A stretch of DNA of 64,000 nucleotides from a virus. Taxonomy: Duplodnaviria > Caudoviricetes. Where the stretch lies: positions 96,001 through 160,000 of the IMG/VR virus record IMGVR_UViG_3300017780_003104. One strand, written 5' to 3'. The position numbers and the translations under genes are program-made. Positions 5,436 through 63,637 of this stretch are shown here, piece by piece (positions within the stretch are counted from its first letter, which is position 1; every line of letters begins with the position of its first letter). The notes beneath the pieces were generated by a model, which was given only the letters and a program-made list of their open reading frames with translations, searched no databases and was not told where the DNA came from.

Positions 5436-6220
5436 TATTATCAATTCCAAGCTTATCTGAAGAATGTAATATAAACGTATCGGAATTCACATTAGAGGAT
5501 TTCAGGAATATATCATTCCTGATCGAACAGAATAATGATAATGAATTATATAAGTTTCTAATATCTAAAATAGAGACTCCATGCAATGCATATGATAAAT
5601 TCTATGTTCTTTTTAAAATGAGAATATTATTAGTAAATGAAAATATATCATTTAATAATGGAAGAGCTAATATAAAAGTAAATTTAAAATCTTGGGATAA
5701 TACGATTTTAGATAACTATAAAGATATCAAAAAGGATATAATATTTGAGGATTTTATAGCAACAGTGAATTACCCAGAGCATATGATGTACGATAATTAT
5801 GATGATTGTGTAATGGGATGTATTGCAAAAATTTCATATAAAGGTAGAGACATTAAATTCTTCGGATTGGATAAAACTGAAAAGCTTTCAATTTTGGAGA
5901 GAATACCACCATCGTTATATATTTCAATTAAGGACTATATAACTGAACATCGCATGGATAGGTTAATTGTAATGGAGTCTAAATTAGATTTACCAGAAAT
6001 CGATATAAATATTTTCAATAATAATGCATACGAATTATTAAAAATATTATATAATTACTATAAGTATGACGATATATTAGAATTGATATTTATGCTAAGT
6101 CGAAAAATCAATGATATTGGGTATTTGAATAGTAGAAATCCAAGAGATTTGGACCTTTTAATACAAATATATTCAGAAGATGTTGAAAAAACCTCCCATG
6201 ATAGTAAATCATATATATGA
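5432..6220 (+). CDS. Probable baseplate hub assembly protein (gp26/gp51-like)
   Basis: Position in the baseplate block and acidic composition; weak family assignment. Confidence 0.35.
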   Translation: MILSIPSLSEECNINVSEFTLEDFRNISFLIEQNNDNELYKFLISKIETPCNAYDKFYVLFKMRILLVNENISFNNGRANIKVNLKSWDNTILDNYKDIKKDIIFEDFIATVNYPEHMMYDNYDDCVMGCIAKISYKGRDIKFFGLDKTEKLSILERIPPSLYISIKDYITEHRMDRLIVMESKLDLPEIDINIFNNNAYELLKILYNYYKYDDILELIFMLSRKINDIGYLNSRNPRDLDLLIQIYSEDVEKTSHDSKSYI

Positions 6221-24646: not shown

Positions 24647-26029
24647 ATGAAATTGAAAATCACAGAAGGAGCAGATCCAAATTATTTGGCAACTGTTGTA
24701 AAAGTTCCCACTATTAAGGAACATCCAAATGCTGATAAATTGGAAATTGTCGATGTTTTTGGTAATTCTATTATTATTGGTAAGGGTTCTTACACTGAAG
24801 GTGAACTCGTTGTTTACTTTCCAATCGAGAGTGCCATTTCTCTTAAGTTTTTGTCTTGGGCAAACCTAAGAGATAGTGCCGAAATGAATGCAGATGGTAA
24901 GACTAAGGGTTTCTTTGGAAAACATGGCCGAGTCAAGGCTATTAGTCTTAGAAGCATTCCATCACAAGGCTTTCTATTTAAAGTATCTGAACTAGTAAAA
25001 TATTATGAAATTGATGAAAACACGTTTAATCTTGGGGATACTTTTGATACTGTCGGTGATGATATCTTGGTTAAGAAATATATTAAAGGAACCGACAGAG
25101 GACAAGGTGAACAAAACGTAAAGAAGACCCGTGTTCCGAAATGGTTAGATAAGACCATTGGAGTTATGCCAAGACCTATTCGTAGAAATGCTTATATTTT
25201 TATTAATTCTTGGTATAATCGAAATAGCGAAGGTATTAAATCTCAAATCGTAGATGGAGAATTTAGATTCCACTACAAGACAGAACAACTTGGCCGAAAT
25301 ATTTTCATATTGAAGCCTGAAGATTCTATAACTATATCTAGTAAGATGCATGGAACTTCTGCAATCTTATCTAATATCGTTTGTAAGAAACCATTCAATC
25401 CAATTAGAAGTATTGGAAATAAATTTGGTGCGAAGATTCCATCGACTGAATATAAATTTGTGTATAGTTCAAGGTCTGTATTGAAAAATCGTCGTGATGG
25501 AAAATTTACAGACGATGTTTGGGGTATTATTGCGTCTGAATTAAAGGATGAAATTCCAGAAGGTTATACTGTATATGGCGAAATTGTGGGGTATACTCCC
25601 GGTGGTGCTATGGTTCAGAAGAATTACGATTATGGTATAACTAGGGGTAAGTGTGAATTTTTTGTATATCGAATCACATATAATCTATCCGATGGAAAGG
25701 TTAAGGAATTGGAATGGTATGAAATCGAAGAATTTTGTTATGAGCATGGTATGAGGAATGTTAAGGTTTATTACAATGGTTTGGCAAGTGATCTATTTGA
25801 TATTCCACTTGATAATGATTGGCATGAAACCTTTTTATCTAAACTCAAAGATAATCACCTTGATAATGTTTGTGAACAATGCACCACAGGTTCTATTAAT
25901 GAGGGTATTGTTCTTAGAATTGAAAGTAGTGAAAAGAAAACTGCATTAAAATTTAAAAGTCCTAAGTTCTTGATTCAAGAGTCGGCAGCAAGAGATAATA
26001 ACGAGGAAGACATGGAGGACGATAGTTAA
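24647..26029 (+). CDS. RNA ligase with an N-terminal OB-like domain (DRB0094/Rnl5-like)
   Basis: HPNADKLE, SQG, KMHGTS, YGEIVG, EGIVLR and KFKSPKF. Confidence 0.8.
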   Translation: MKLKITEGADPNYLATVVKVPTIKEHPNADKLEIVDVFGNSIIIGKGSYTEGELVVYFPIESAISLKFLSWANLRDSAEMNADGKTKGFFGKHGRVKAISLRSIPSQGFLFKVSELVKYYEIDENTFNLGDTFDTVGDDILVKKYIKGTDRGQGEQNVKKTRVPKWLDKTIGVMPRPIRRNAYIFINSWYNRNSEGIKSQIVDGEFRFHYKTEQLGRNIFILKPEDSITISSKMHGTSAILSNIVCKKPFNPIRSIGNKFGAKIPSTEYKFVYSSRSVLKNRRDGKFTDDVWGIIASELKDEIPEGYTVYGEIVGYTPGGAMVQKNYDYGITRGKCEFFVYRITYNLSDGKVKELEWYEIEEFCYEHGMRNVKVYYNGLASDLFDIPLDNDWHETFLSKLKDNHLDNVCEQCTTGSINEGIVLRIESSEKKTALKFKSPKFLIQESAARDNNEEDMEDDS

Positions 26030-34089: not shown

Positions 34090-35181
34090 ATGAAGTTACC
34101 CGATCCAGAACAATTCAAATTCAAAGACTGTGTTATAGCAGGAGATGAATGTTGGTTGATTAATCCCGTCGATATGTCTACTAAGTGGGATGATGATAAT
34201 GCACGATTTTGTTCATGTATTGTTCGTAAGTCCGATAACTTTGTAGTATCGCAGGGATTTGGTAAGTTTACTAATTTCGGGGAACGTCCTGATTTTCAAC
34301 CATGGGATAACTCATGGAAGATTGAAGCAAGAATGAAATTAGATGGTTCTTTGCTTATCATATCCAAGTATAAGGGTGAACTTATCTGTAGAACCCGTGG
34401 AACTATTGATGCTCGTCAAATGGCTAATGGATATGAAATAGATTTTCTTCTTAAGAAGTATAATTTATTTTTTGAAACAGTAAAGAGGGGACCAGAAGAT
34501 CATCATATTTCTTATCTATTTGAATGGACCACACCAAATAATATTATCGTGTTGAGGGAACATAACGAACCGACCCTAACTTTAGTTGGGGCTGTAGTGA
34601 ACAACTATTATTACGAGTATGCGACCCAATCTTATTTGGATGACTTGGCTAGGGTGTATGGGCTTAATCGTCCACAAAAGTATGAATACAACTCTATCGA
34701 AGAATGTATTCTTGATGTTGCTGCTTGGAGAGGTAAAGAAGGTGTAGTGTTATATTCACCCGATGGTCAAACTCTTAAGAAGATCAAGGCTGACGAATAC
34801 TGTGAGCTTCACAAACTCGCAACTGGTATCAAAGGTATCAAGCAAGTTCTTGATGTGTTTATGGCATCACCTAAGTTTGTTGAACCTGATGATTTTTATA
34901 AGTATATCGAGACTACTCTTGATTTTGAGATAGCTGAAAAGTGTAAGGATTTTATCTATGATATATGTCTAGCGTATGGGAAGTATGTGGTTAAATCCAA
35001 TATAATCAAATCCGAGATTACCGACTATATCAAACCTCTGGATACTCGTAAAGAACAGGCTATAGCAATAACTACCAAGTTTAAGGGTTGGCAAACGTCT
35101 TTGGCGTTTTGTTTACTTGATGATAAGATCGTTGAAGATAAACTTATGCGTACAGCGTTAGACCAACTATTAGAACTATGA
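34090..35181 (+). CDS. T4 Rnl1-like RNA ligase
   Basis: FGKFTNFGE, KLDGSL, FEW, EGVV and KKIKADEY. Confidence 0.8.
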   Translation: MKLPDPEQFKFKDCVIAGDECWLINPVDMSTKWDDDNARFCSCIVRKSDNFVVSQGFGKFTNFGERPDFQPWDNSWKIEARMKLDGSLLIISKYKGELICRTRGTIDARQMANGYEIDFLLKKYNLFFETVKRGPEDHHISYLFEWTTPNNIIVLREHNEPTLTLVGAVVNNYYYEYATQSYLDDLARVYGLNRPQKYEYNSIEECILDVAAWRGKEGVVLYSPDGQTLKKIKADEYCELHKLATGIKGIKQVLDVFMASPKFVEPDDFYKYIETTLDFEIAEKCKDFIYDICLAYGKYVVKSNIIKSEITDYIKPLDTRKEQAIAITTKFKGWQTSLAFCLLDDKIVEDKLMRTALDQLLEL

Positions 35182-36267: not shown

Positions 36268-37500
36268 ATGGCAACTGAAAAAGTAAGACTAGTATTTTCT
36301 GACTTGGGATGTAATAGTTACAAGTATTGGGATGGTGAGCTACACGATGATGGTCGAGTAATATCAACTTTTGGCGTTGTTGGTGCAAAGAACCCACAAT
36401 CAAAGGATTTTGGTATTGTTGGTAGATCGTTCTTTGATAAGAAGATTCGTGAGAAGGAACGTAAGGGATATGAACGCGCTAAAGTACTAATGGAAGGTGC
36501 CACTACAGTAGTCAACAAATCATCCCTTGCTGATATCGCATTAAGTCAAATTAAACTGTCTGATACCAGTCTTAAAACTCTTGTTAAACGACTGGCTGAT
36601 AGCAATGTCCATAAGATCACTAATTCGACCAGTATTAGTTTTGATAATGGAATGTTCCAAACCCCATTGGGTATTGTTACCAAAGAGGGGATATCCGATG
36701 CTAGACTGTTACTGGATTTCTTCTTCAAAAATATTAAGAAGAATGGTCAAGATGATTTCAATGAAAAGATTGATTCATATCTTCGAATTATCCCAAGACC
36801 TAAAGGTAATGGATTACACTATGAAGACATTTTTCCGACATTGGAATCCGTCCAAAAAGAATCAGATGTTTTGGATGCTCTTGATAATAGTGTTGAACTT
36901 GCCATGAAACCAAAGGACGATGGAACGTCGAAGGTGGAAAGTGTGTTTAACCTTAATATGGCTATCGTGGAAGATGATAAGATTATCAAAGCGATTAAAG
37001 ATTGGTATACTAGGACCAATAAGGCAATGCATAATTACACATCGATCAAAATTGCTAATATTTACGGTGTCGATATCGTAGATTACAATAAGAATTTTAA
37101 ACAAGATGATAAAAACATCATTGAAGTTTGGCATGGTAGTGGTCAATCAAATATTCTTAGTATCTTGAAGTCTGGATTGTTCTGTAGCCCACCTAGTACT
37201 GCCGCTATTGCTGGTAAGATGTTTGGTAATGGTGTATACGGTTCCAAAACATCATCTAAAAGTTTAGGATATAGTCTTGGTAGATGGGGTCAGGGAAAAG
37301 GTGAAAGTGGTTGGCTTTTTGTTTGCGACTTCGCTATGGGAAATCCGTATTACCCGAATACCAGAGGTGGCTTAAACAAGATTCCTGATGGATATCATAG
37401 TTGTTGGGCATTACCTGAAAAAACAGGCTTGCTAAATGATGAACTCATCGTATACTCCGAAAAGCAGATCAAAATTAAATTTCTCGTAGAACTAAAATAA
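36268..37500 (+). CDS. WGR-domain PARP-like ADP-ribosyltransferase
   Basis: N-terminal WGR-like domain, helical regulatory region, catalytic H-Y-E triad (WHGS, FGNGVY, NDELIVY). Confidence 0.88.
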   Translation: MATEKVRLVFSDLGCNSYKYWDGELHDDGRVISTFGVVGAKNPQSKDFGIVGRSFFDKKIREKERKGYERAKVLMEGATTVVNKSSLADIALSQIKLSDTSLKTLVKRLADSNVHKITNSTSISFDNGMFQTPLGIVTKEGISDARLLLDFFFKNIKKNGQDDFNEKIDSYLRIIPRPKGNGLHYEDIFPTLESVQKESDVLDALDNSVELAMKPKDDGTSKVESVFNLNMAIVEDDKIIKAIKDWYTRTNKAMHNYTSIKIANIYGVDIVDYNKNFKQDDKNIIEVWHGSGQSNILSILKSGLFCSPPSTAAIAGKMFGNGVYGSKTSSKSLGYSLGRWGQGKGESGWLFVCDFAMGNPYYPNTRGGLNKIPDGYHSCWALPEKTGLLNDELIVYSEKQIKIKFLVELK

Positions 37501-40255: not shown

Positions 40256-40394
40256 TTTAAGGAAGTCCAAATAGGTAGCGGTTACACTCAAGCGCGATGA
40301 GTGTGAGAGAAAAGAATGACAATACTCTTAGTATTATATCAACTTTCGAAACGGTGAAAATCGTAAATTGCGGGTTCAAGTCCCGCTCCTTAAA
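40256..40394 (+). ncRNA. Enlarged tRNA-like RNA
   Basis: Terminal TTTAAGGA/TCCTTAAA; T-arm GCGGG-TTCAAGT-CCCGC; 9-bp TTACACTCA/TGAGTGTGA hairpin with a 7-nt loop. Confidence 0.65.
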
Positions 40395-40398
40395 TCTT

Positions 40399-40606
40399 TG
40401 AAGTGTCGATGTTGAAGGAAACATATCGAAGTTTGTAAGATAGTTATGGAAAGGCGCATGGCCGAACCACTAAGAAAGTTGAGAAATCTTAACTAGGTTG
40501 GTAGCCTAGACTTACCATGTAGCCCATACGGAGTAATTGTCTAAACCTAATCTCGCCAGAGAAAAGTTACGGACTCCATAGTTGGTATCAAGCCCAACAC
40601 ACTTCA
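40399..40606 (+). ncRNA. Enlarged tRNA-like RNA with a multi-helix insert
   Basis: Acceptor GAAGTGT/ACACTTC; D-like ATGTT/AACAT; T-like GTTGG-TATCAAGC-CCAAC; internal TATGG/CCATA, CATGG/CCATG, CTAGG/CCTAG and GGAGT/ACTCC. Confidence 0.6.
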
Positions 40607-40634
40607 TAATTTTTAATTAAAACCGAACTATAAT

Positions 40635-41066
40635 TTGGTTATGAAACGAGACGAGTTACAAAAAATTCTAAGAGCATATATGGAAGAACATGGTGCTATG
40701 GAATTTCTATGGACTGTTGATGATGAACTTCTACGTCCAACTATTCATAAGAATAGACATGAAATGATTTGTTCGACTGGAGATTTTAGAGGTAACTTTG
40801 ATTATGATCGTGGGTTCTTGGTAGTTTCCATTTCAGTATATTGGGAAAGGGATGAATTATATTCCGTTAATATGCCTATTTTCAATATCGATGATGGTAT
40901 TTGGAGAGCTGTTTCTAAGAATTTTGACACTAAAGAAGAGGCTCAAGAATTAGCAGATAAAGTGGCTTCAGGTTTTGTTAAAAACTTTGGAACTAAGCTT
41001 CCAACCGAAGATGAACTAAATGAATTTCTTCGTCCCTTTGGTATGTATGGTCATTCAGAAGGTTAA
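40635..41066 (+). CDS. Hypothetical protein
   Basis: Motif-headed; the ATG at 40641 is the likely start. Confidence 0.65.
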   Translation: MVMKRDELQKILRAYMEEHGAMEFLWTVDDELLRPTIHKNRHEMICSTGDFRGNFDYDRGFLVVSISVYWERDELYSVNMPIFNIDDGIWRAVSKNFDTKEEAQELADKVASGFVKNFGTKLPTEDELNEFLRPFGMYGHSEG

Positions 41067-41090: not shown

Positions 41091-41324
41091 ATGAAAATCA
41101 TCACCACACGCCTTAGAGTCATGCGATACAATTATCGAAATGATTGGAAAGCTGTTCAAATTCTACTCAAATATTATTATATTTTTGGCTTTAAATTTTT
41201 CGAAGTAGAATTAGATAGGGAAGATGTTCCAAGGCATGTGGTTCTTGCCAATGCATGTTTTGGCGATACGAGTGGATGGACTTCAAAATTTATGCCCTTT
41301 GAAAAAGGAGGATGGAAAGACTAA
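41091..41324 (+). CDS. Hypothetical protein
   Basis: Motif-headed. Confidence 0.6.
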   Translation: MKIITTRLRVMRYNYRNDWKAVQILLKYYYIFGFKFFEVELDREDVPRHVVLANACFGDTSGWTSKFMPFEKGGWKD

Positions 41325-41325
41325 A

Positions 41326-41961
41326 ATGCAAACTCGTTATAAATACAACAGAACAAAACATCTTCCATGGTCCCCCGGTGCAACTTCAGATGATAAGATT
41401 CTTAAGGACACTTCTTGCTTTAATGGTAAGACGGTAATCATTACTGAGAAGATGGATGGTGAAAATTCCACTCTTTATAGTGATTATTATCATGCACGTT
41501 CATTAGATGGTAGGGATCATCCTTCACGTTCATGGATTAAACAGTTTCATGCATCTATTAAGAATGACATTCCAGAAGGATGGCGTATATGTGGTGAAAA
41601 CCTTTATGCAAAACATTCCATTGGATATGATAAGCTAAAATCATATTTCTATTGTTTCAGTATTTGGGATGATACTAACTATTGTTTATCTTGGAAAGAC
41701 ACTGTAGAGTTTTGTCAGTTGTTAGGTATTGAACATGTTAAGGTTTTTAAGACTTTGAAGTGGGACGAATTAACAGTAAAGAATTTCTTAATTGATTCTG
41801 AAAAAGAGGAAGGTTATGCTGTTCGTAATGTTGGTGGATTTCTATATGAAGACTTTGGAAGTAACGTAGCGAAATGGGTAAGACCAAATCACGTAACCAC
41901 TTCGACCCATTGGCTACATTCGGAAGTGATACCAAACAAGTTAATTAAAACCGAAGTATAA
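41326..41961 (+). CDS. RNA ligase family protein
   Basis: KYNRTKHLPWSPG, TEKMDGEN, CGEN, EGYAVR and AKWVR; ATG at 41326 is in frame with track ORF 41224. Confidence 0.8.
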   Translation: MQTRYKYNRTKHLPWSPGATSDDKILKDTSCFNGKTVIITEKMDGENSTLYSDYYHARSLDGRDHPSRSWIKQFHASIKNDIPEGWRICGENLYAKHSIGYDKLKSYFYCFSIWDDTNYCLSWKDTVEFCQLLGIEHVKVFKTLKWDELTVKNFLIDSEKEEGYAVRNVGGFLYEDFGSNVAKWVRPNHVTTSTHWLHSEVIPNKLIKTEV

Positions 41962-49492: not shown

Positions 49493-50998
49493 ATGATTAC
49501 AAATCCCTTAACACAAACAGATGCTTATAAATTATCTCATCACGGGTTTATGGACCCATTGACGGAATATATTTACGCTAACCAAACACCAAGAGGTAGT
49601 AGTTACCTACCAGTTCTGAAACAATTTTATGATGATAAGTCCGTGATCTTCGGGTTACAACATTTCATCATTGATTTCCTAATTAATGATTATAACACTG
49701 GATTCTTCAATCTCCCAAAGGAGACTGTGATCAAGAAATTCAAACGTAGGTGTGATGCATATCTAGGAAAGGATAATGTTGATATGACTCGTTTTGAAGA
49801 ATTACATGATCTTGGATATCTTCCAATTCGTATCAAGGCACTACCAGAGGGTAGCAGAGTTAATGTTAAAGTTCCATATTTTACCATTACTAATACTCAC
49901 CCTAAATTTGCTTGGCTTACTAATTATCTTGAAACTATTATTTCCTGTGAAACTTGGAAACCGATTACCAATGCCACTATCGCATTTGAATTCCGTAAGA
50001 TGTTTAATAAGTTTGCTATGGAAACAGTTGGAAATACCGATGGTGTCTGTTTTCAAGGACATGGATTTGAATTTCGTGGTATGAGTGGGAGACACGATTC
50101 TGCTATTAATGGTGCGGCATTCCTTTTAAGCTTTATGGGAACAGATACTATTCCTGCTATTGATTTACTTGAAGATTATTATAATGCTGATGCCGATAAA
50201 GAACTTATTGCTGCTTCTGTTCCAGCATCCGAACATAGCGTAAGTAGTCTTGGAACTGCATTAACAGGGGAGTTGGATTTCTTTAGAGATGCCATCACAA
50301 AACATTATCCAACTGGTATCGTTAGTCTTGTTAGTGACACCTACGACTACTTTAAAGTCATCACTGAGTATGCAACAATTCTTAAAGATGATATCTTAAA
50401 TCGTCAACCCAATGAACTTGGATTAGCTAAAGTTGTATTTAGACCTGATAGTGGAAATCCGGTCAATATTATTTGTGGTGATCCTAATGCTCCTATTGGT
50501 AGTAATGAATACAAAGGCTCCGTTGAGTGTTTATGGGAAATCTTTGGAGGGACTGTATCTGAACAAGGTTATAAGACATTAAACCAAAGGGTGGGATTAA
50601 TCTATGGAGATTCTATCACTCAACAAAGAGCGTATGATATTTTAACTCGTCTCAAAGAAAAAGGATTTGCATCTAATAATATTGTATTCGGGGTTGGGTC
50701 TTATACTTTAAATCTATTAACGCGTGATTGTTTGGGTATGGCTATTAAGGCTACTTGGGCGCAAGTTGATGGTGTGGGTTACGATATTTATAAAGATCCT
50801 ATCACTGATGATGGTCTTAAAAAGTCTGCCAAAGGTCGTCTTAGGGTTGATCTAATTGATGGTGAATATGTTTTGAAAGATCAATGCACGGAAGAAGAAG
50901 AATCTGGAGGAGAACTCAAGACAGTTTTTCTTGATGGTAAATTGATTGTTGATCAAACACTTACTGAGATTCGTGCAAGAGTCGCAACACAATTCTAA
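49493..50998 (+). CDS. Nicotinamide phosphoribosyltransferase-like protein (Namat/Nampt)
   Basis: TDAYKLSH, HGFEFRG, ASEHSV, SLVSDTYD, FRPDSGNP, YGDSIT and KKSAKG. Confidence 0.93.
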   Translation: MITNPLTQTDAYKLSHHGFMDPLTEYIYANQTPRGSSYLPVLKQFYDDKSVIFGLQHFIIDFLINDYNTGFFNLPKETVIKKFKRRCDAYLGKDNVDMTRFEELHDLGYLPIRIKALPEGSRVNVKVPYFTITNTHPKFAWLTNYLETIISCETWKPITNATIAFEFRKMFNKFAMETVGNTDGVCFQGHGFEFRGMSGRHDSAINGAAFLLSFMGTDTIPAIDLLEDYYNADADKELIAASVPASEHSVSSLGTALTGELDFFRDAITKHYPTGIVSLVSDTYDYFKVITEYATILKDDILNRQPNELGLAKVVFRPDSGNPVNIICGDPNAPIGSNEYKGSVECLWEIFGGTVSEQGYKTLNQRVGLIYGDSITQQRAYDILTRLKEKGFASNNIVFGVGSYTLNLLTRDCLGMAIKATWAQVDGVGYDIYKDPITDDGLKKSAKGRLRVDLIDGEYVLKDQCTEEEESGGELKTVFLDGKLIVDQTLTEIRARVATQF

Positions 50999-52079: not shown

Positions 52080-52105
52080 ACAAAACATCTTTTACATTAT
52101 AAATA

Positions 52106-52420
52106 TCCGGTGTTCGAATCATCGGTCTTGGAAGGCCCGCCTACCTAACAGGGCTGATAGCTTAATGGAAACTAAAAGCGTTATAATGTGAAAACTCAGT
52201 GGATAGGTTGTAACATCCCACTTTTTAAGTAGAAAACAGAAGTGTAAGCTGTAAATGATTCCACAAATATTCTAGATGATAAGTTGTGGATGTGTTCTCA
52301 CCTATTGGCTCATAACTGATAGAACTAGTGGGGTTGGAGTAACGACCAACTACTTAATCTTGTATAGAGAGTAAGAATCTTTTTCATGCGGAGTTTTCGG
52401 TCCCGTTCTTATAACCGATA
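52106..52420 (+). ncRNA. About 310-nt structured RNA upstream of thg1
   Basis: Follows TATAAATA (52098-52105); T-loop hairpin CCGGTG-TTCGAAT-CATCGG; GTTATAA/TTATAAC, TTAAGTAG/CTACTTAA, TCCACAA/TTGTGGA and GTTGG/CCAAC. Confidence 0.6.
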
Positions 52421-52432
52421 CATTTTAATATT

Positions 52433-53230
52433 ATGAATAACAAAGACGGACTAGGAGACAGAATAAAAAATTACGAAAGTATTTCAGAGCATTACTTTCT
52501 ACCAAAGACTCCGATTATTATTCGCGTTGATGGTAAAAGTTTTCATACGTGGACTAAAGGTTGTCAAAGACCTTTCGATCAAACGCTGATCACTTGTATG
52601 TTTGAGTCTGCTAAAGAAGTAGCTAAACAAATGCAAGGTTGTAAAGCTTTGTATGCTCAATCGGATGAAGTAACATTTGTTCTTACTGATGATACTACTC
52701 TTGATTCACAACAATGGTTTGGCGGTAGACAGAACAAGATTGAAAGTGTTACTGCTGCAATGATGACAGCATACTTTAATAAGAATTGGTTACATTCTGT
52801 TCCTAGACATATGGTTGATTATGATTTTCACGTAGATTACACCCCCGCTATCTTTGATGCCCGTGCTTTTCAATGTCCTAAAGATGATGTTGCTAATGTC
52901 TTTCTATGGAGAGTAAAGGATTGGGAACGTAATAGTCTCAATATGTATTGTGAACAGTTCTTCTCTCATAAGGAACTGCAAGGTCAAGGTCGTGCTGATA
53001 GACATGAAATGCTTCATAAGATTGGACATAATTGGGCTACTGAATGCACCGATCAACAAAAGAATGGTTCGTGGTATTCTCCGGGAAAACCTGATAAGTT
53101 CAACCTCACTAATTACTATGATATCGATGATTATATCTTTCGTGACGGTATTGCTTATGTAATGTCAAAGAAGATGCAATCAGAGGATTTAAGTTGGATG
53201 AGTAAAATGATTGTAAAGAGAATGGGTTAA
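52433..53230 (+). CDS. thg1: tRNA-His guanylyltransferase / Thg1-like 3'-5' polymerase
   Basis: RIKNYE, IIRVDGKSFH, YAQSDEV, FDAR and WRVKD.ERNS. Confidence 0.92.
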   Translation: MNNKDGLGDRIKNYESISEHYFLPKTPIIIRVDGKSFHTWTKGCQRPFDQTLITCMFESAKEVAKQMQGCKALYAQSDEVTFVLTDDTTLDSQQWFGGRQNKIESVTAAMMTAYFNKNWLHSVPRHMVDYDFHVDYTPAIFDARAFQCPKDDVANVFLWRVKDWERNSLNMYCEQFFSHKELQGQGRADRHEMLHKIGHNWATECTDQQKNGSWYSPGKPDKFNLTNYYDIDDYIFRDGIAYVMSKKMQSEDLSWMSKMIVKRMG

Positions 53231-54673: not shown

Positions 54674-56329
54674 ATGTTTGAGAATAAAAGAAACGCAGAA
54701 GTCGTGACTGTTAAATCAGTTACTCGTAAGGAAGTTAACGCATTCCTAAACAATGCTAAAGCAGAATCATCCAAGACTCGTTCTGGTAACGGGGCATTGA
54801 AATTCAGTTCAAGTGGTGATTCGTTTACCGATCAGTTTACTAAGGCTGGTAAGTATAAGGAACCTCGTAAGTTCTCTCAAATCGCACAAGATTGTGAAAT
54901 GTTGTGGGGTGAAGACCCTCTCAAGTGTGTGAAGTTCGCATTGTTTCTTCGTACTATTCCTCGCGTAGTTAATCTTCCTGATGGAAGTAAGACTGAACTT
55001 CCTCAAAAGGGAACCGAGTTGAAGCATGAAGCAATTATGCGTATGCTTTGGTTGAGTGATAAGTCTCCTCAAGCATTCTGGAATAACATTCTATTGTTTG
55101 TTTCTCTTGGATCTTGGCACGATGTTTTCACTATGCTTCAATATGATCTTAGCTACAACGGTTGGAATAATCGTAAGCTTGATTGGGATAAGTTTGGTGA
55201 GTTGATTCTTGCTGGTCTTAACAATAAGAACACCTGTGATCTTATTAAGAAGTATCTTCCTCAAATCAAGTCTCGTAGTCAAGCTACGACTATTGATGCT
55301 CAATCCAACAATGCTATTGCTAAGTGGATTTGCTCTCTAGTCTTTGGTAACAAGGAAAGCGCATCTTCATACAAGGCTTATCGTAAGATCAAGACTAGTG
55401 GAACCGCGCATGATTGGCAAAAGCTTATCTCCCAAAAGAGAATGAGTGAATTGGATTTCAATAAAATTCATGGTCGTGCTCTATCAATTCTTGTTAAGAG
55501 TAAGTTCTTAAAGAACCAAGGACTTAGCGATAAGTATGCATCTTGGATTACTGCACCTACCACCAAGGAAGTTAAGTATACTGGATTCGTCCATGAACTC
55601 TTCGAAGGTAACTGGAAGAACGATAAGAACAACGAAGCAACTATCAATAAGCAATTCGATACTCTTGTTCAAAAGGCAAGAACTAATGAAGTTACTGATT
55701 TGATTGTCGTTCGTGATACTTCTGGATCGATGTCTTCAATTTGTCCCGGCACTAAGTCTTCATGTCTTGATGTTGGAAAGGCAATCGCTCTATACTTTAG
55801 TGAATTCCTTCAAGGAACCTTTGCGGGTCATTGGATTGAATTCAACTCTGATGCTAAACTTCAAAAATGGGTTGGTCAAACTCCCGTTGATAAGTGGAAG
55901 AATGATAAGTCAAGCTTTTATGGTGGAACTAACTTTCAAAGTGTTGTTAATCTTCTCGCTAAGATGAAGAAAGAGGGAACACCTGAAAGTGATTTCCCTA
56001 GCGGTATCCTTTGCATTTCCGATGCAGAATTCAATCCTACTTCATTAGGTAAAACTAATGTTGAGACTGCGTTGACTACTCTTCGTAATGCTGGATTCTC
56101 CAAGGCTTATGTTGATAACTTTGTGATTATTCTTTGGAACCTTCAAAATAGTTATTATGGTAAAGGGTCTGGTGAAAAGTTTGAGACTGGTAAAGAAGTA
56201 AACAACGTTTACTATCTGGGTGGGTATAGTGCCTCCGCAGTTAGTTTCCTTTCAGCTAAGATCAAGACAACCTATGATCTAATCAACGAGTGTCTTAATC
56301 AGGAAGTTTTGAATATGGTTGAGATTTAA
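54674..56329 (+). CDS. Ro60/TROVE-like (DUF2828-type) RNA-binding protein with a C-terminal vWA domain
   Basis: Helical N-terminus (KFALFLR, GSWHD, KYLP) and vWA MIDAS elements VVRDTSGSM, GGTNF and ISDAEF; TTGACA-16-TAAGAT-N6-ATG upstream. Confidence 0.72.
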   Translation: MFENKRNAEVVTVKSVTRKEVNAFLNNAKAESSKTRSGNGALKFSSSGDSFTDQFTKAGKYKEPRKFSQIAQDCEMLWGEDPLKCVKFALFLRTIPRVVNLPDGSKTELPQKGTELKHEAIMRMLWLSDKSPQAFWNNILLFVSLGSWHDVFTMLQYDLSYNGWNNRKLDWDKFGELILAGLNNKNTCDLIKKYLPQIKSRSQATTIDAQSNNAIAKWICSLVFGNKESASSYKAYRKIKTSGTAHDWQKLISQKRMSELDFNKIHGRALSILVKSKFLKNQGLSDKYASWITAPTTKEVKYTGFVHELFEGNWKNDKNNEATINKQFDTLVQKARTNEVTDLIVVRDTSGSMSSICPGTKSSCLDVGKAIALYFSEFLQGTFAGHWIEFNSDAKLQKWVGQTPVDKWKNDKSSFYGGTNFQSVVNLLAKMKKEGTPESDFPSGILCISDAEFNPTSLGKTNVETALTTLRNAGFSKAYVDNFVIILWNLQNSYYGKGSGEKFETGKEVNNVYYLGGYSASAVSFLSAKIKTTYDLINECLNQEVLNMVEI

Positions 56330-56918
56330 ATATCTTAAACTTTCTATCTAAAAAGAGAGTGGAGTCTTTGTAAATAAAGTTTCCGATGCGACCAACTTTA
56401 TCTAGAATCAATAGACAAGCCGACTGATTTGGAAAAATTTACAATGACAATAATAACAGCAAAATTAGAAGAGGTTGACAAATCTAAATTTCATGATTAA
56501 ATAAAGATCCGATGAGGTTTCGGTAGCTTCCTATGGCGAACAAATAAAACTACCAATAAGATTGCTTCAGCAAATATATTTTTATTTAAGGAAAAACAAA
56601 AGCAATCTGATAAGAGGACAAACTACAAATACAAAAAATCAAACGTCCTCTGATAAGAATAAGTAACAGCAAAAACAATAAAAAATAAAAGCAAATATGC
56701 TAAACGATGAAAGTCGTCCGGGTATCCTCACCATATTAGAGGTTGTAATATGGAGCTTAGAAGGGAGTCAATCTTAACTTATTCTGATAAAGTCATAAAC
56801 TGCAAATAAAAATACTATTATGCAAAATAGCCTGTCGGTGGGTCCGAGGTAACTAAAACGGTTCGATTCCGTATCTATGACTTGCATAAAATCTCTTCAG
56901 CAAATAACGGAACGTAAA

Positions 56919-56996
56919 ACTCCCATACGTGTGGTTCAAATCCCGCTGCTCACACTTTATTAAAAAGTGGGTATAGCCAAGTGGTAAGGCAGGAGT
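56919..56996 (+). ncRNA. Circularly permuted tRNA-like domain (unit 5)
   Basis: 3' half ACTCC-CATAC-T arm-TGCTCAC precedes 5' half GTGGGTA-TAGCCAAGTGGTAAGGC-A-GGAGT. Confidence 0.8.
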
Positions 56997-57048
56997 CCAA
57001 AAACAATGAGATTTAATAGAAATACTCCAGCAAATAACGCAACAAGGA

Positions 57049-57127
57049 ACCGTGTGTCGAACGTTCGATTCGTTCTCTCCCACCATATAAGTAAAATGGG
57101 AGGTAGCTCAGTTGGTAGAGCAACGGT
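57049..57127 (+). ncRNA. Circularly permuted tRNA-like domain (unit 6)
   Basis: ACCGT-GTGTC-GAACG TTCGATT CGTTC-TCTCCCA-CCA precedes TGGGAGG-TAGCTCAGTTGGTAGAGC-A-ACGGT. Confidence 0.88.
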
Positions 57128-57462
57128 AAGCAAAAAACATAGTATTTCGATAGGATTATATTCAGCAAATATACTACTCAACTGTTAATTGAAAAAAGTA
57201 AAAGTAATCCGATAAGAATTTCAGCAGCATAATATCGTAACTATAACGACTCTAAGGTAGCTTAGGTTTGGGAAACCAATACGGCGATGGTAGATAGGTA
57301 AACTAAGTTCTTTATAGAATATGTAAACCCTACGGGACGAACGATTGAATATTTATATATTCTTTAATGTGTCAGTGAAAGATGAAATTCTGATAAAATT
57401 AGCAACAGCAAACCAAACAAAAATTTGACTTTTAATCAAACAATAAAATGCTAATTTGATAC

Positions 57463-63562: not shown

Positions 63563-63637
63563 GGCATCGTAGCTCAATGGAAGAGCAACACCCTTCTAAG
63601 GTGTGGGTTGAAAGTTCGAGTCTTTCCGGTGTCACCA
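63563..63637 (+). tRNA. tRNA-Arg(UCU) with encoded CCA
   Basis: GGCATCG/CGGTGTC acceptor, GCTC/GAGC D-arm, ACACC-CTTCTAA-GGTGT anticodon arm, GAAAG-TTCGAGT-CTTTC T-arm, ACCA. Confidence 0.95.

Follow-up and report, generated by a model that had tools for sequence, protein, structure and literature searches.

Circularly permuted tRNA-like bodies in a tandem phage RNA array: probable cargo of Y RNA-like small RNAs beside the gene for a predicted Ro60-like protein

The window analysed here is a 64-kb stretch (bases 96001-160000) of the IMG/VR virus record IMGVR_UViG_3300017780_003104, a 211.7-kb single contig of 34% G+C that is read as the genome of a large tailed phage. It carries on its + strand a gene for a 551-aa protein with a predicted Ro60 fold and, beginning directly 3' of this gene, a 1.1-kb region without a credible open reading frame (56330-57460), in which nine scaffold units are arranged in tandem. 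Each unit consists of a closing stem of 7-9 bp (P1), a CAGCAAA-type motif (the handle), a variable cargo and the 3' strand of P1, and the units are connected by 4-nt linkers of GAUA type. Seven copies of the CAGCAAA motif lie within 1.16 kb here, compared with 13 on the entire + strand of the window. In units 5 and 6, which start 560 and 690 nt downstream of the gene and on the same strand, the cargo is a circularly permuted tRNA-like body. The features are listed below with the evidence for the larger ones in brackets, where R2 is a covariance model built only from modules at related loci and not from the window itself (alignment A3).

54674..56329, + strand: gene for the 551-aa protein, Ro60-like by predicted fold, the presumed partner of the array (Pfam, phrog, AlphaFold2, Foldseek)
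56559..57457, + strand: array of nine tandem scaffold units (sequence reading, scaffold scan)
56889..57014, + strand: unit 5, with P1 56889-56895 paired with 57008-57014 and the handle CAGCAAA at 56898-56904
56919..56996, + strand: unit 5 cargo, a tRNA-like body in permuted order, its T stem bulged and its D arm of Cys/Gln type (R2, D-arm matches, ARAGORN)
56919-56923 with 56992-56996, + strand: unit 5 anticodon-like stem, ACTCC with GGAGT, 5/5 pairs
56929-56946, + strand: unit 5 T arm, with one bulged T
56947-56953 with 56967-56973, + strand: unit 5 acceptor, seven pairs, two of them G-U
56954-56966, + strand: unit 5 linker, 13 nt
56976-56990, + strand: unit 5 D arm
57015..57148, + strand: unit 6 with its upstream 4-nt linker, a 134-nt cassette (sequence, fold, relatives)
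57019-57026 with 57141-57148, + strand: unit 6 P1
57028-57034, + strand: unit 6 handle
57049..57127, + strand: unit 6 cargo, a near-perfect permuted tRNA-like body of tRNA-Phe type (R2, Rfam YrlA, RNAfold, tRNA pattern matches)
57049-57053 with 57123-57127, + strand: unit 6 anticodon-like stem, 3' strand ACCGT and 5' strand ACGGT, 5/5 pairs
57054-57058, + strand: unit 6 variable loop, GTGTC
57059-57075, + strand: unit 6 T arm, GAACG, TTCGATT, CGTTC, with a 5-bp stem
57076-57082 with 57097-57103, + strand: unit 6 acceptor, 3' strand TCTCCCA and 5' strand TGGGAGG, seven pairs, one of them G-U
57083-57096, + strand: unit 6 linker, 14 nt, opening with CCA
57106-57121, + strand: unit 6 D arm, GCTC, AGTTGGTA, GAGC, with TA before and A after

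In both units the 3' half of a tRNA lies ahead of its matching 5' half, and the order within the body is variable loop, T arm, acceptor hairpin, D arm. The acceptor stem is closed by an AU-rich linker, and the anticodon-like stem opens into the scaffold, which on this side is single-stranded, with CAGCAAA 5' and an A-rich run 3', before it is closed by a P1 of 7-8 bp. The strands flanking the anticodon-like stem measure 14-21 nt (handle-bearing) and 11-13 nt (A-rich). A first-pass annotation of this DNA had described permuted halves in units 5 and 6, with an AT-rich linker at the acceptor end and scaffold in place of the anticodon loop, and every element that it named was located in both units. 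It had also credited unit 6 with a retained CCA. The triplet is present (57083-57085), but because it directly abuts the seventh acceptor pair it occupies positions 73-75 instead of 74-76, that is, one base early and without a discriminator base. Unit 5 has no CCA.

The permuted tRNA-like architecture of units 5 and 6 is confirmed. Run over both strands of the window, R2 recovered unit 6 with 66.6 bits (E 2e-15) and unit 5 with 51.3 bits (E 2e-11); the next-best match, at 27 bits, was the 3' part of a genuine tRNA-Arg. Further, the minimum-energy fold computed by RNAfold for the whole of unit 6 is exactly the proposed architecture (z -2.2). ARAGORN and Rfam, applied to the native window, called only the tRNA-Arg at 63563 and neither of the two units, and neither unit forms the contiguous cloverleaf with a 7-nt anticodon loop that marks an ordinary tRNA gene. 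The expectation that the rejoined halves would score as tRNA held for unit 6, which ARAGORN called with all five dummy loops, but hardly for unit 5, which was called with one of the five. The Rfam tRNA model also gave a chimeric match of 21.9 bits (gathering score 29) at 56967-57082, in which the 5' half of unit 5 is combined with the 3' half of unit 6. Since the acceptor strands mismatch, this match is put down to permuted modules lying next to each other and is an artefact.

The sequence of the 551-aa protein matched only Pfam DUF7788 and phrog_850 ('RNA-binding protein'). A tblastn search with it found 456 phage records, several of them annotated as DUF2828, which include phages of Listeria (P100 type), Enterococcus, Bacillus and Campylobacter as well as Felix O1-type phages, the best match being Leptolyngbya phage Lbo-JY46 at 43% identity. 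An AlphaFold2 model based on 57 homologues (mean predicted local distance difference test score 80.7) was compared by Foldseek with the PDB, where it aligned over its full length (about 550-600 columns) with the Ro60/TROVE structures 9kop, 1yvp, 2i91 and 2nvo at E values of 1e-7 to 1e-3, a probability of 1.0 and template modelling (TM) scores of 0.4-0.55. The proteins at the top were Ro60 of Thermus phage phiLo (9kop), Xenopus and human Ro60, and Rsr of Deinococcus. Similarly, the first five matches among the Swiss-Prot models were RO60, followed by telomerase p80 and, further down, TEP1. The metal-site motif DxSxS of the vWA domain is invariant among the 57 homologues, and the predicted model has the architecture of Ro60, a helical-repeat ring joined to a vWA domain with its metal site. 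A neighbour protein with a predicted Ro60 fold agrees with the Y RNA-type setting implied by the earlier comparison with YrlA.

Relatives of the locus (L001-L067 and L308-L310) were drawn from IMG/VR contigs, GenBank phages and Logan/JGI contigs. In these, an array of this kind adjoins the homologous gene and runs on its strand; the array lies downstream in the relatives of the window and upstream in Herelleviridae and Bacillus phages. The linkage of gene and array extends from 95% to about 25% protein identity and includes Leptolyngbya, Listeria, Enterococcus and Bacillus phages. A scan of 63 sources for the scaffold (CNGCAA, the strand preceding it paired with a downstream strand, then a linker of G-W-W type) found 248 units on the + strand versus 34 on the - strand. 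A covariance model of the tRNA-like modules, R1, gave 41 matches of at least 35 bits in 26 sources, all on the + strand and about a dozen of them outside its training set. CNGCAA lies at most 60 nt upstream in 33 of the 41; the remaining eight include some with a CAGCAT variant and several tandem tRNA gene junctions, so that about 40 are real modules. The array DNA had no match at the DNA level in 50,697 phage records, Rfam at its gathering thresholds found nothing within the array, and literature searches on DUF2828, phage YrlA, bacteriophage permuted tRNAs and phage TROVE/Y RNA turned up no description of this RNA family. The set of handle RNAs is widespread and apparently undescribed. In Listeria phage P100, the handle-RNA units and the DUF2828 gene are immediately preceded by a match to the ROOL RNA (L008 1468-2019; 86 bits as against a gathering score of 99.1), and a gene for an RtcB-type ligase is found about 1.3 kb downstream of the DUF2828 gene.

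An alignment of 38 modules has invariant G10, U8, A14, G53, T54, T55, A58 and C61, with C56 in 37 of them. The Levitt pair 15:48 covaries (G15:C48 in 22 modules, A15:U48 in nine), and double changes occur at all seven acceptor pairs and at four of the five T-stem pairs, G53:C61 being constant. Such conserved bases and covariation are what would be expected under selection for a tRNA-like L shape. The proposal that the modules present an intact D/T-loop elbow without an anticodon loop is therefore well founded, as the nucleotides of the tertiary contacts are kept across the 38 members. In many members of the family the 'anticodon' stem measures only 3 bp or the acceptor hairpin is tightly closed. 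In the modules of L019 (4665-4750), L066 (1177-1264) and L022 (2655-2741), the tRNA-like body sits directly on P1, which replaces the anticodon stem, and the CAGCAAA handle replaces the variable region, which hints that the handle adjoins the tRNA core.

The acceptor linkers of the 38 modules are either short closing loops of 2-8 nt or long AU-rich linkers of 13-26 nt, with structured inserts of 68-84 nt in three further modules. N-CCA stands at the start of the linker in nine of the 38, as against 0.4 expected from base composition, although several of these nine are mutually orthologous and represent roughly six independent cases; 10 more start with N-CA. The enrichment fits descent from CCA-encoding tRNA genes or, alternatively, use of the end after cutting.

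Among known systems, the closest design is that of the YrlA RNAs of bacteria and mycobacteriophages (RF02553), for which Chen and colleagues used as criteria a tRNA-like domain, a nearby Ro60 gene and, close to the 5' end, the motif GNCGAA(N)G (Chen et al., 2014; PMC4201824). YrlA RNAs are bound by Rsr and bear tRNA-like modifications, and one member with a 7-bp acceptor is a substrate of RNase P (PMC4201824). The RNAs of the array share with YrlA a terminal stem around a tRNA-like domain made of variable loop, T arm, acceptor-like stem-loop and D arm, the conserved tertiary nucleotides with a covarying 15:48 pair, and a position within about 4 kb of, and on the same strand as, a Ro60-type gene, the protein here being Ro60-like by predicted fold. 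Positions 23-85 of the Rfam YrlA model align to the tRNA-like core of unit 6 (33 bits, E 8e-5), in keeping with the YrlA topology recognized in the first-pass annotation. In contrast to YrlA, the handle is CAGCAAA in place of GNCGAA(N)G, the presumed partner belongs to the DUF2828/DUF7788 proteins and resembles Ro60 only in its predicted fold, nine tandem units with one scaffold and unrelated cargoes are joined by 4-nt linkers, and in many members an encoded (N)CCA leads into a long AU-rich linker. The gathering score of RF02553, 69 bits, was not reached by unit 6 (33 bits), and unit 5 had no match. The best relatives matched full-length at 46 bits (L004) and 45 bits (L009, with another match at 34 bits), and in the L004 alignment the positions of the model's motif fall on unrelated A/U-rich sequence. 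As the motif and the gathering score are both lacking, the units are described as YrlA-like in the way they work and are not filed under RF02553.

Bacterial Ro60 with a Y RNA tethers PNPase (PMC4201824). Similarly, Ro60 of phage phiLo binds two neighbouring Y-like RNAs, Yrl1 and Yrl2, and forms ternary complexes with the host PNPase in gel-shift assays (PMC12135203; 9KOP). Both phages combine a protein of the Ro60 kind, in the window by predicted fold, with adjacent Y-like RNAs, and 9kop is the best structural match of the window protein. However, the phiLo RNAs carry CGAA and lie upstream of the gene, and no permuted tRNA-like cargo or array was reported there. TROVE proteins of jumbo phages occur among RNA-repair genes (PMC7824862). 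In the Felix O1-type phage Bas63, the Ro60-like gp130 counters the ppl defence system, and its authors guessed that some of the neighbouring tRNA genes are Y RNAs (bioRxiv 10.1101/2024.10.10.617714). This is again a Ro60-like phage protein beside tRNA-like genes, although that study did not identify the partner RNAs; at <30% identity, the tblastn matches of the window protein include Felix O1-type phages.

The permuted tRNA genes of Cyanidioschyzon merolae and Thermofilum pendens likewise have the 3' half upstream and a linker between the acceptor ends. In those genes, joining of the ends at a bulge-helix-bulge restores a normal anticodon loop, whereas here the anticodon stem runs on into a conserved handle and a closing stem. 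No bulge-helix-bulge or U33 loop was seen at the anticodon-stem flanks by eye, no dedicated search having been made.

In its scaffold only, the array also resembles the Class I RNAs of dictyostelids (RF01414), both having a UG tail, an interior that varies and a short end-joining stem whose 5' strand is followed directly by a motif containing CAGCAA. RF01414 matches eight cargo-poor units from seven sources at 30-39 bits, all on the strand of the array, and the A-rich 3' part is also shared. Matched units include the following.

Window, 56559-56608
L007, 5734-5791
L004, 5758-5810
L002, 5944-6006
L003, 5462-5515
L001, 5772-5823 and 5977-6033

These matches lie under the gathering score of 41.5, however, only part of the 11-nt motif is common, the organisms are unrelated, and units 5 and 6 were not matched by RF01414. 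Class I RNAs have been reported as unique to dictyostelids (PMC7919456).

Units 5 and 6 had also been taken for recently captured real tRNAs, and this part of the first-pass annotation is not supported. The 22 ordinary tRNAs of the phage, which are located elsewhere in its genome, were rejected as a source, the best agreement being 51 of 65 positions and driven by universal bases; neither unit is a copy of one of them. A pattern made of the unit 6 D arm, the first four anticodon-stem pairs and the variable loop had at least 120 matches in bacterial genome contigs. The anticodon was GAA in 115 of the 117 natural tRNAs read among these, and the body of unit 6 is therefore of tRNA-Phe type. The D arm of unit 5, among 121 natural tRNA matches, fell in tRNA-Cys in 99 and in tRNA-Gln in 21. 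The acceptor of unit 6, TCTCCCA/TGGGAGR, is not that of a tRNA-Phe. The same TCTCCCA occurs again with TGGGAGA in modules of arrays whose protein is only 49-61% identical, so that this type of module is old; the T stems of these modules differ and covary. Recent capture of a host tRNA was rejected for unit 6 on these grounds, a Phe-type body with a non-Phe acceptor and a module type present in distant arrays, and unit 6 is read as an old module class and not as a fresh capture.

There is one real element of recency, namely unit 6 as a whole-cassette indel. Across units 5 and 7, two relatives from other samples (L308 and L309, with a 95% identical protein) differ from the window only by a single substitution in unit 5, an indel and a few bases where the alignment begins on the left. 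The indel is clean and has identical flanks: the 134 nt at 57015-57148, linker and whole unit 6, are missing from both. The substitution is T to C at 56950 and turns the pair G4-U69 into G4-C69. Thus, whole units are gained or lost cleanly, and more distant relatives have other cargo sets, at times on a similar closing stem. In another freshwater sample (run X3), DNA contigs join 56646 to 56802 and 57122 to 57236, skipping 155 and 113 bases, which suggests strain variants of the array with other unit composition.

Other units of the array differ in cargo. The short cargo of unit 7 (57153-57210) resembles an Asn-like anticodon stem-loop, TCAA-CTGTTAA-TTGA, and that of unit 9 (57396-57457) a Lys-like one, TTTGA-CTTTTAA-TCAAA; hence, some units bear the anticodon arm that is absent from units 5 and 6. 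CUUUUAA/CUUUUAU and CUGUUAA loops are found again in relatives (L007 in the region 5795-5888, L003 5215-5264, L308 and L310). In unit 4 (56790-56883), a clean T arm, ACGG-TTCGATT-CCGT, follows a G/C-rich hairpin without a D arm or acceptor. This cargo is conserved in L001 (6036-6125), L003 (5604-5691), L007 (5795-5888), L308 and L310, and may be a T-arm-only module like YrlB. Unit 8 (57215-57391) has a big structured cargo with GTAACTATAACG then TAAGGTAGC, which is kept in L001, L308 and L309 and had no match to the Rfam rRNA models at E values up to 10.

A candidate promoter precedes the array.

56475..56503, + strand: candidate sigma-70-type promoter, TTGACA, a spacer of 16-17 nt and TG-n-TTAAAT (read by eye)

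A perfect TTGACA is found in the same place before the arrays of L001-L004, L308, L310 and phages P100, EFDG1 and Skywalker, a conservation that was likewise judged by eye. A scan for consensus promoters and terminators found no enrichment and no terminator; the candidate is unlisted there because it does not satisfy the rule for the -10 hexamer. One metatranscriptome, from a sample that also contains the DNA, has exact contigs at 56184-56406 and 56807-57069, which could be explained by DNA carry-over.

DNA nearly identical to the window is found in freshwater and sediment metagenomes. The window also encodes a tail sheath protein and rIIA, and it is a gene neighbourhood rich in RNA-repair and nicotinamide adenine dinucleotide-related genes, as follows.

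24647-26029, 34090-35181 and 41224-41961: three RNA ligase genes (two Pfam RNA_ligase, one T4 Rnl1-type)
52433-53230: Thg1-like 3'-5' polymerase gene
36268-37500: PARP-like gene
49493-50998: NAMPT gene

Two more non-coding stretches, 52080-52430 (directly upstream of the Thg1-like gene) and 40300-40635, have T-arm-like hairpins (R2 18 and 25 bits, respectively).

Taken together, units 5 and 6 are probably the cargo of Y RNA-like small RNAs, which follow the YrlA design with a different handle and in tandem, and whose presumed partner is the Ro60-like protein. They would be tRNA mimics and not tRNA genes, as a body that has the elbow and a 7-bp acceptor helix without an anticodon loop is unable to decode. 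We suggest that the array is transcribed from its own promoter just past the Ro60-like gene, and that the protein would bind the handle and the terminal stem, as Ro60 binds the 5' strand of Y RNA near the terminal stem. The cargo would then present a tRNA elbow and an acceptor end to proteins that recognize tRNA. Candidates include RNase P, the CCA-adding enzyme, modification enzymes, RNA-repair enzymes and host defence factors directed at tRNA, and these might be tethered to the particle or soaked up by it. RNase P might plausibly act on units that combine a 7-bp acceptor with a long AU-rich linker, unit 6 for example, and its cut would yield a nicked module. In evolution, cargo units come and go as whole cassettes.

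Several observations weigh against parts of this interpretation. Unit 5 is thermodynamically marginal, its minimum-energy fold not being the cloverleaf (z -0.4), and is thus the weaker case. The 551-aa protein has no match to Pfam TROVE (PF05731), and a phmmer search of the PDB sequences returned nothing relevant and no solved Ro60; it is therefore called Ro60-like by fold only, an assignment that depends on a predicted model with TM scores of about 0.4-0.55. The handle of units 5 and 6, CAGCAAA in both, is neither the YrlA motif GNCGAA(N0-1)G nor the CGAA carried by known partners of Ro60. The pairing counts come from modules that had been pre-selected for pairing and are thus biased toward structure, so that weight is put on the leave-out model, the matches outside the training set and the invariant tertiary bases. 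The RNA support amounts to the two short contigs named above, among five small contigs over 20 kb, and is therefore too thin to call transcription.

RNase P cleaves the YrlA of Mycobacterium smegmatis, whose acceptor stem is 7 bp long, and this RNA acquires a CCA end in vivo (PMC4201824). A 7-bp acceptor stem and a long linker are also found in unit 6, but with a CCA that is out of register. By this analogy, processing of units 5 and 6 is plausible. The identity of tRNA-Phe depends on the anticodon, phenylalanyl-tRNA synthetase relying on GAA, and charging of the two units is unlikely. In a more speculative extension of the Y RNA-like reading, to which we give rather low odds, RNase P nicks the linker and exposes an encoded or added CCA. 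Anticodon-less and possibly aminoacylated pieces would then be held on the Ro60-like particle, and the exchangeable cassettes might capture or mislead host proteins that handle tRNA or defence proteins that target it.

Other explanations have to be set beside the Y RNA-like one. Cutting by RNase P and 3' trimming could yield two-piece, CCA-ended tRNA-like molecules without an anticodon, which are aminoacylated or bound by synthetases or EF-Tu in the manner of tmRNA and viral tRNA-like structures. In its favour, both units have a 7-bp acceptor and a long AU-rich linker, and the excess of N-CCA linker starts, with the 10 more N-CA starts, points the same way. In the aligned rows, most of the N-CCA modules are on type-II-like bodies with long variable arms. 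The synthetases for Ser and Leu are independent of the anticodon. The cutting of the M. smegmatis YrlA and its gain of CCA (PMC4201824) also favour this idea. Yet we judge it unlikely, as the CCA of unit 6 is out of register and without a discriminator base, unit 5 has none, and the Phe-type body of unit 6 lacks the GAA on which its synthetase depends. In addition, an acceptor loop of 2-8 nt, found in many members, cannot give a free end, and the N-CCA modules, about six when orthologues are discounted, may have inherited the triplet from ancestral CCA-encoding tRNA genes. We also consider it improbable that the units are free decoys or sponges for host tRNA-directed defence factors, acting independently of the Ro60-like protein with the handle as a processing or stability signal. 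The anticodon-stem-loop-like cargo of units 7 (CUGUUAA) and 9 (CUUUUAA), with similar loops in relatives, the rapid cassette turnover of the cargo, and the three RNA ligase genes and Thg1-like gene of the window would suit such decoys. However, units 5 and 6 have no anticodon loop, the target of most known tRNA nucleases, and the linkage of the handle array to the Ro60-like gene is strand-specific and strict across very distant phages, which speaks for a protein partner.

Genuine circularly permuted tRNA genes, with transcript ends that are joined, perhaps by a phage RNA ligase, into decoding tRNAs, are a very unlikely reading of units 5 and 6. The 3' half does come first, the acceptor and anticodon stems match and three RNA ligases are encoded in the window, but the flanks of the anticodon stem enter a conserved handle and, in unit 6, an 8-bp P1. 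No bulge-helix-bulge is apparent by eye, and the joined flanks cannot give a 7-nt loop with U33. Many members have a 3-bp 'anticodon' stem or a tight acceptor hairpin, and the phage already has 22 ordinary tRNAs. Chance or debris, in the form of tandem tRNA gene junctions or decayed halves, is scarcely credible. Junctions of dimeric tRNAs do score weakly (L010 and window 63597, at most 33 bits), and there is the chimeric Rfam match across units 5 and 6. Against this, the strands within each unit pair at 7/7 acceptor and 5/5 anticodon-stem positions, no complementary halves lie in the flanks, the units score 51-67 bits under a model that excludes both of them, and unit 5 is conserved in relatives with a single change that keeps its pair.

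Ro60-like proteins are common in large phages, and the RNA partners of these proteins are undescribed. As tRNA-shaped modules on a conserved handle, the units described here supply precise candidates for such partners, together with predictions for binding, for cutting by RNase P and for the structure of the ends. If the Y RNA-like reading is correct, the idea behind YrlA, a tRNA mimic carried on a Y RNA, would be extended to a second and much larger protein family, and to a tandem, cassette-like format in which gain and loss of cargo are visible between near-identical phages.

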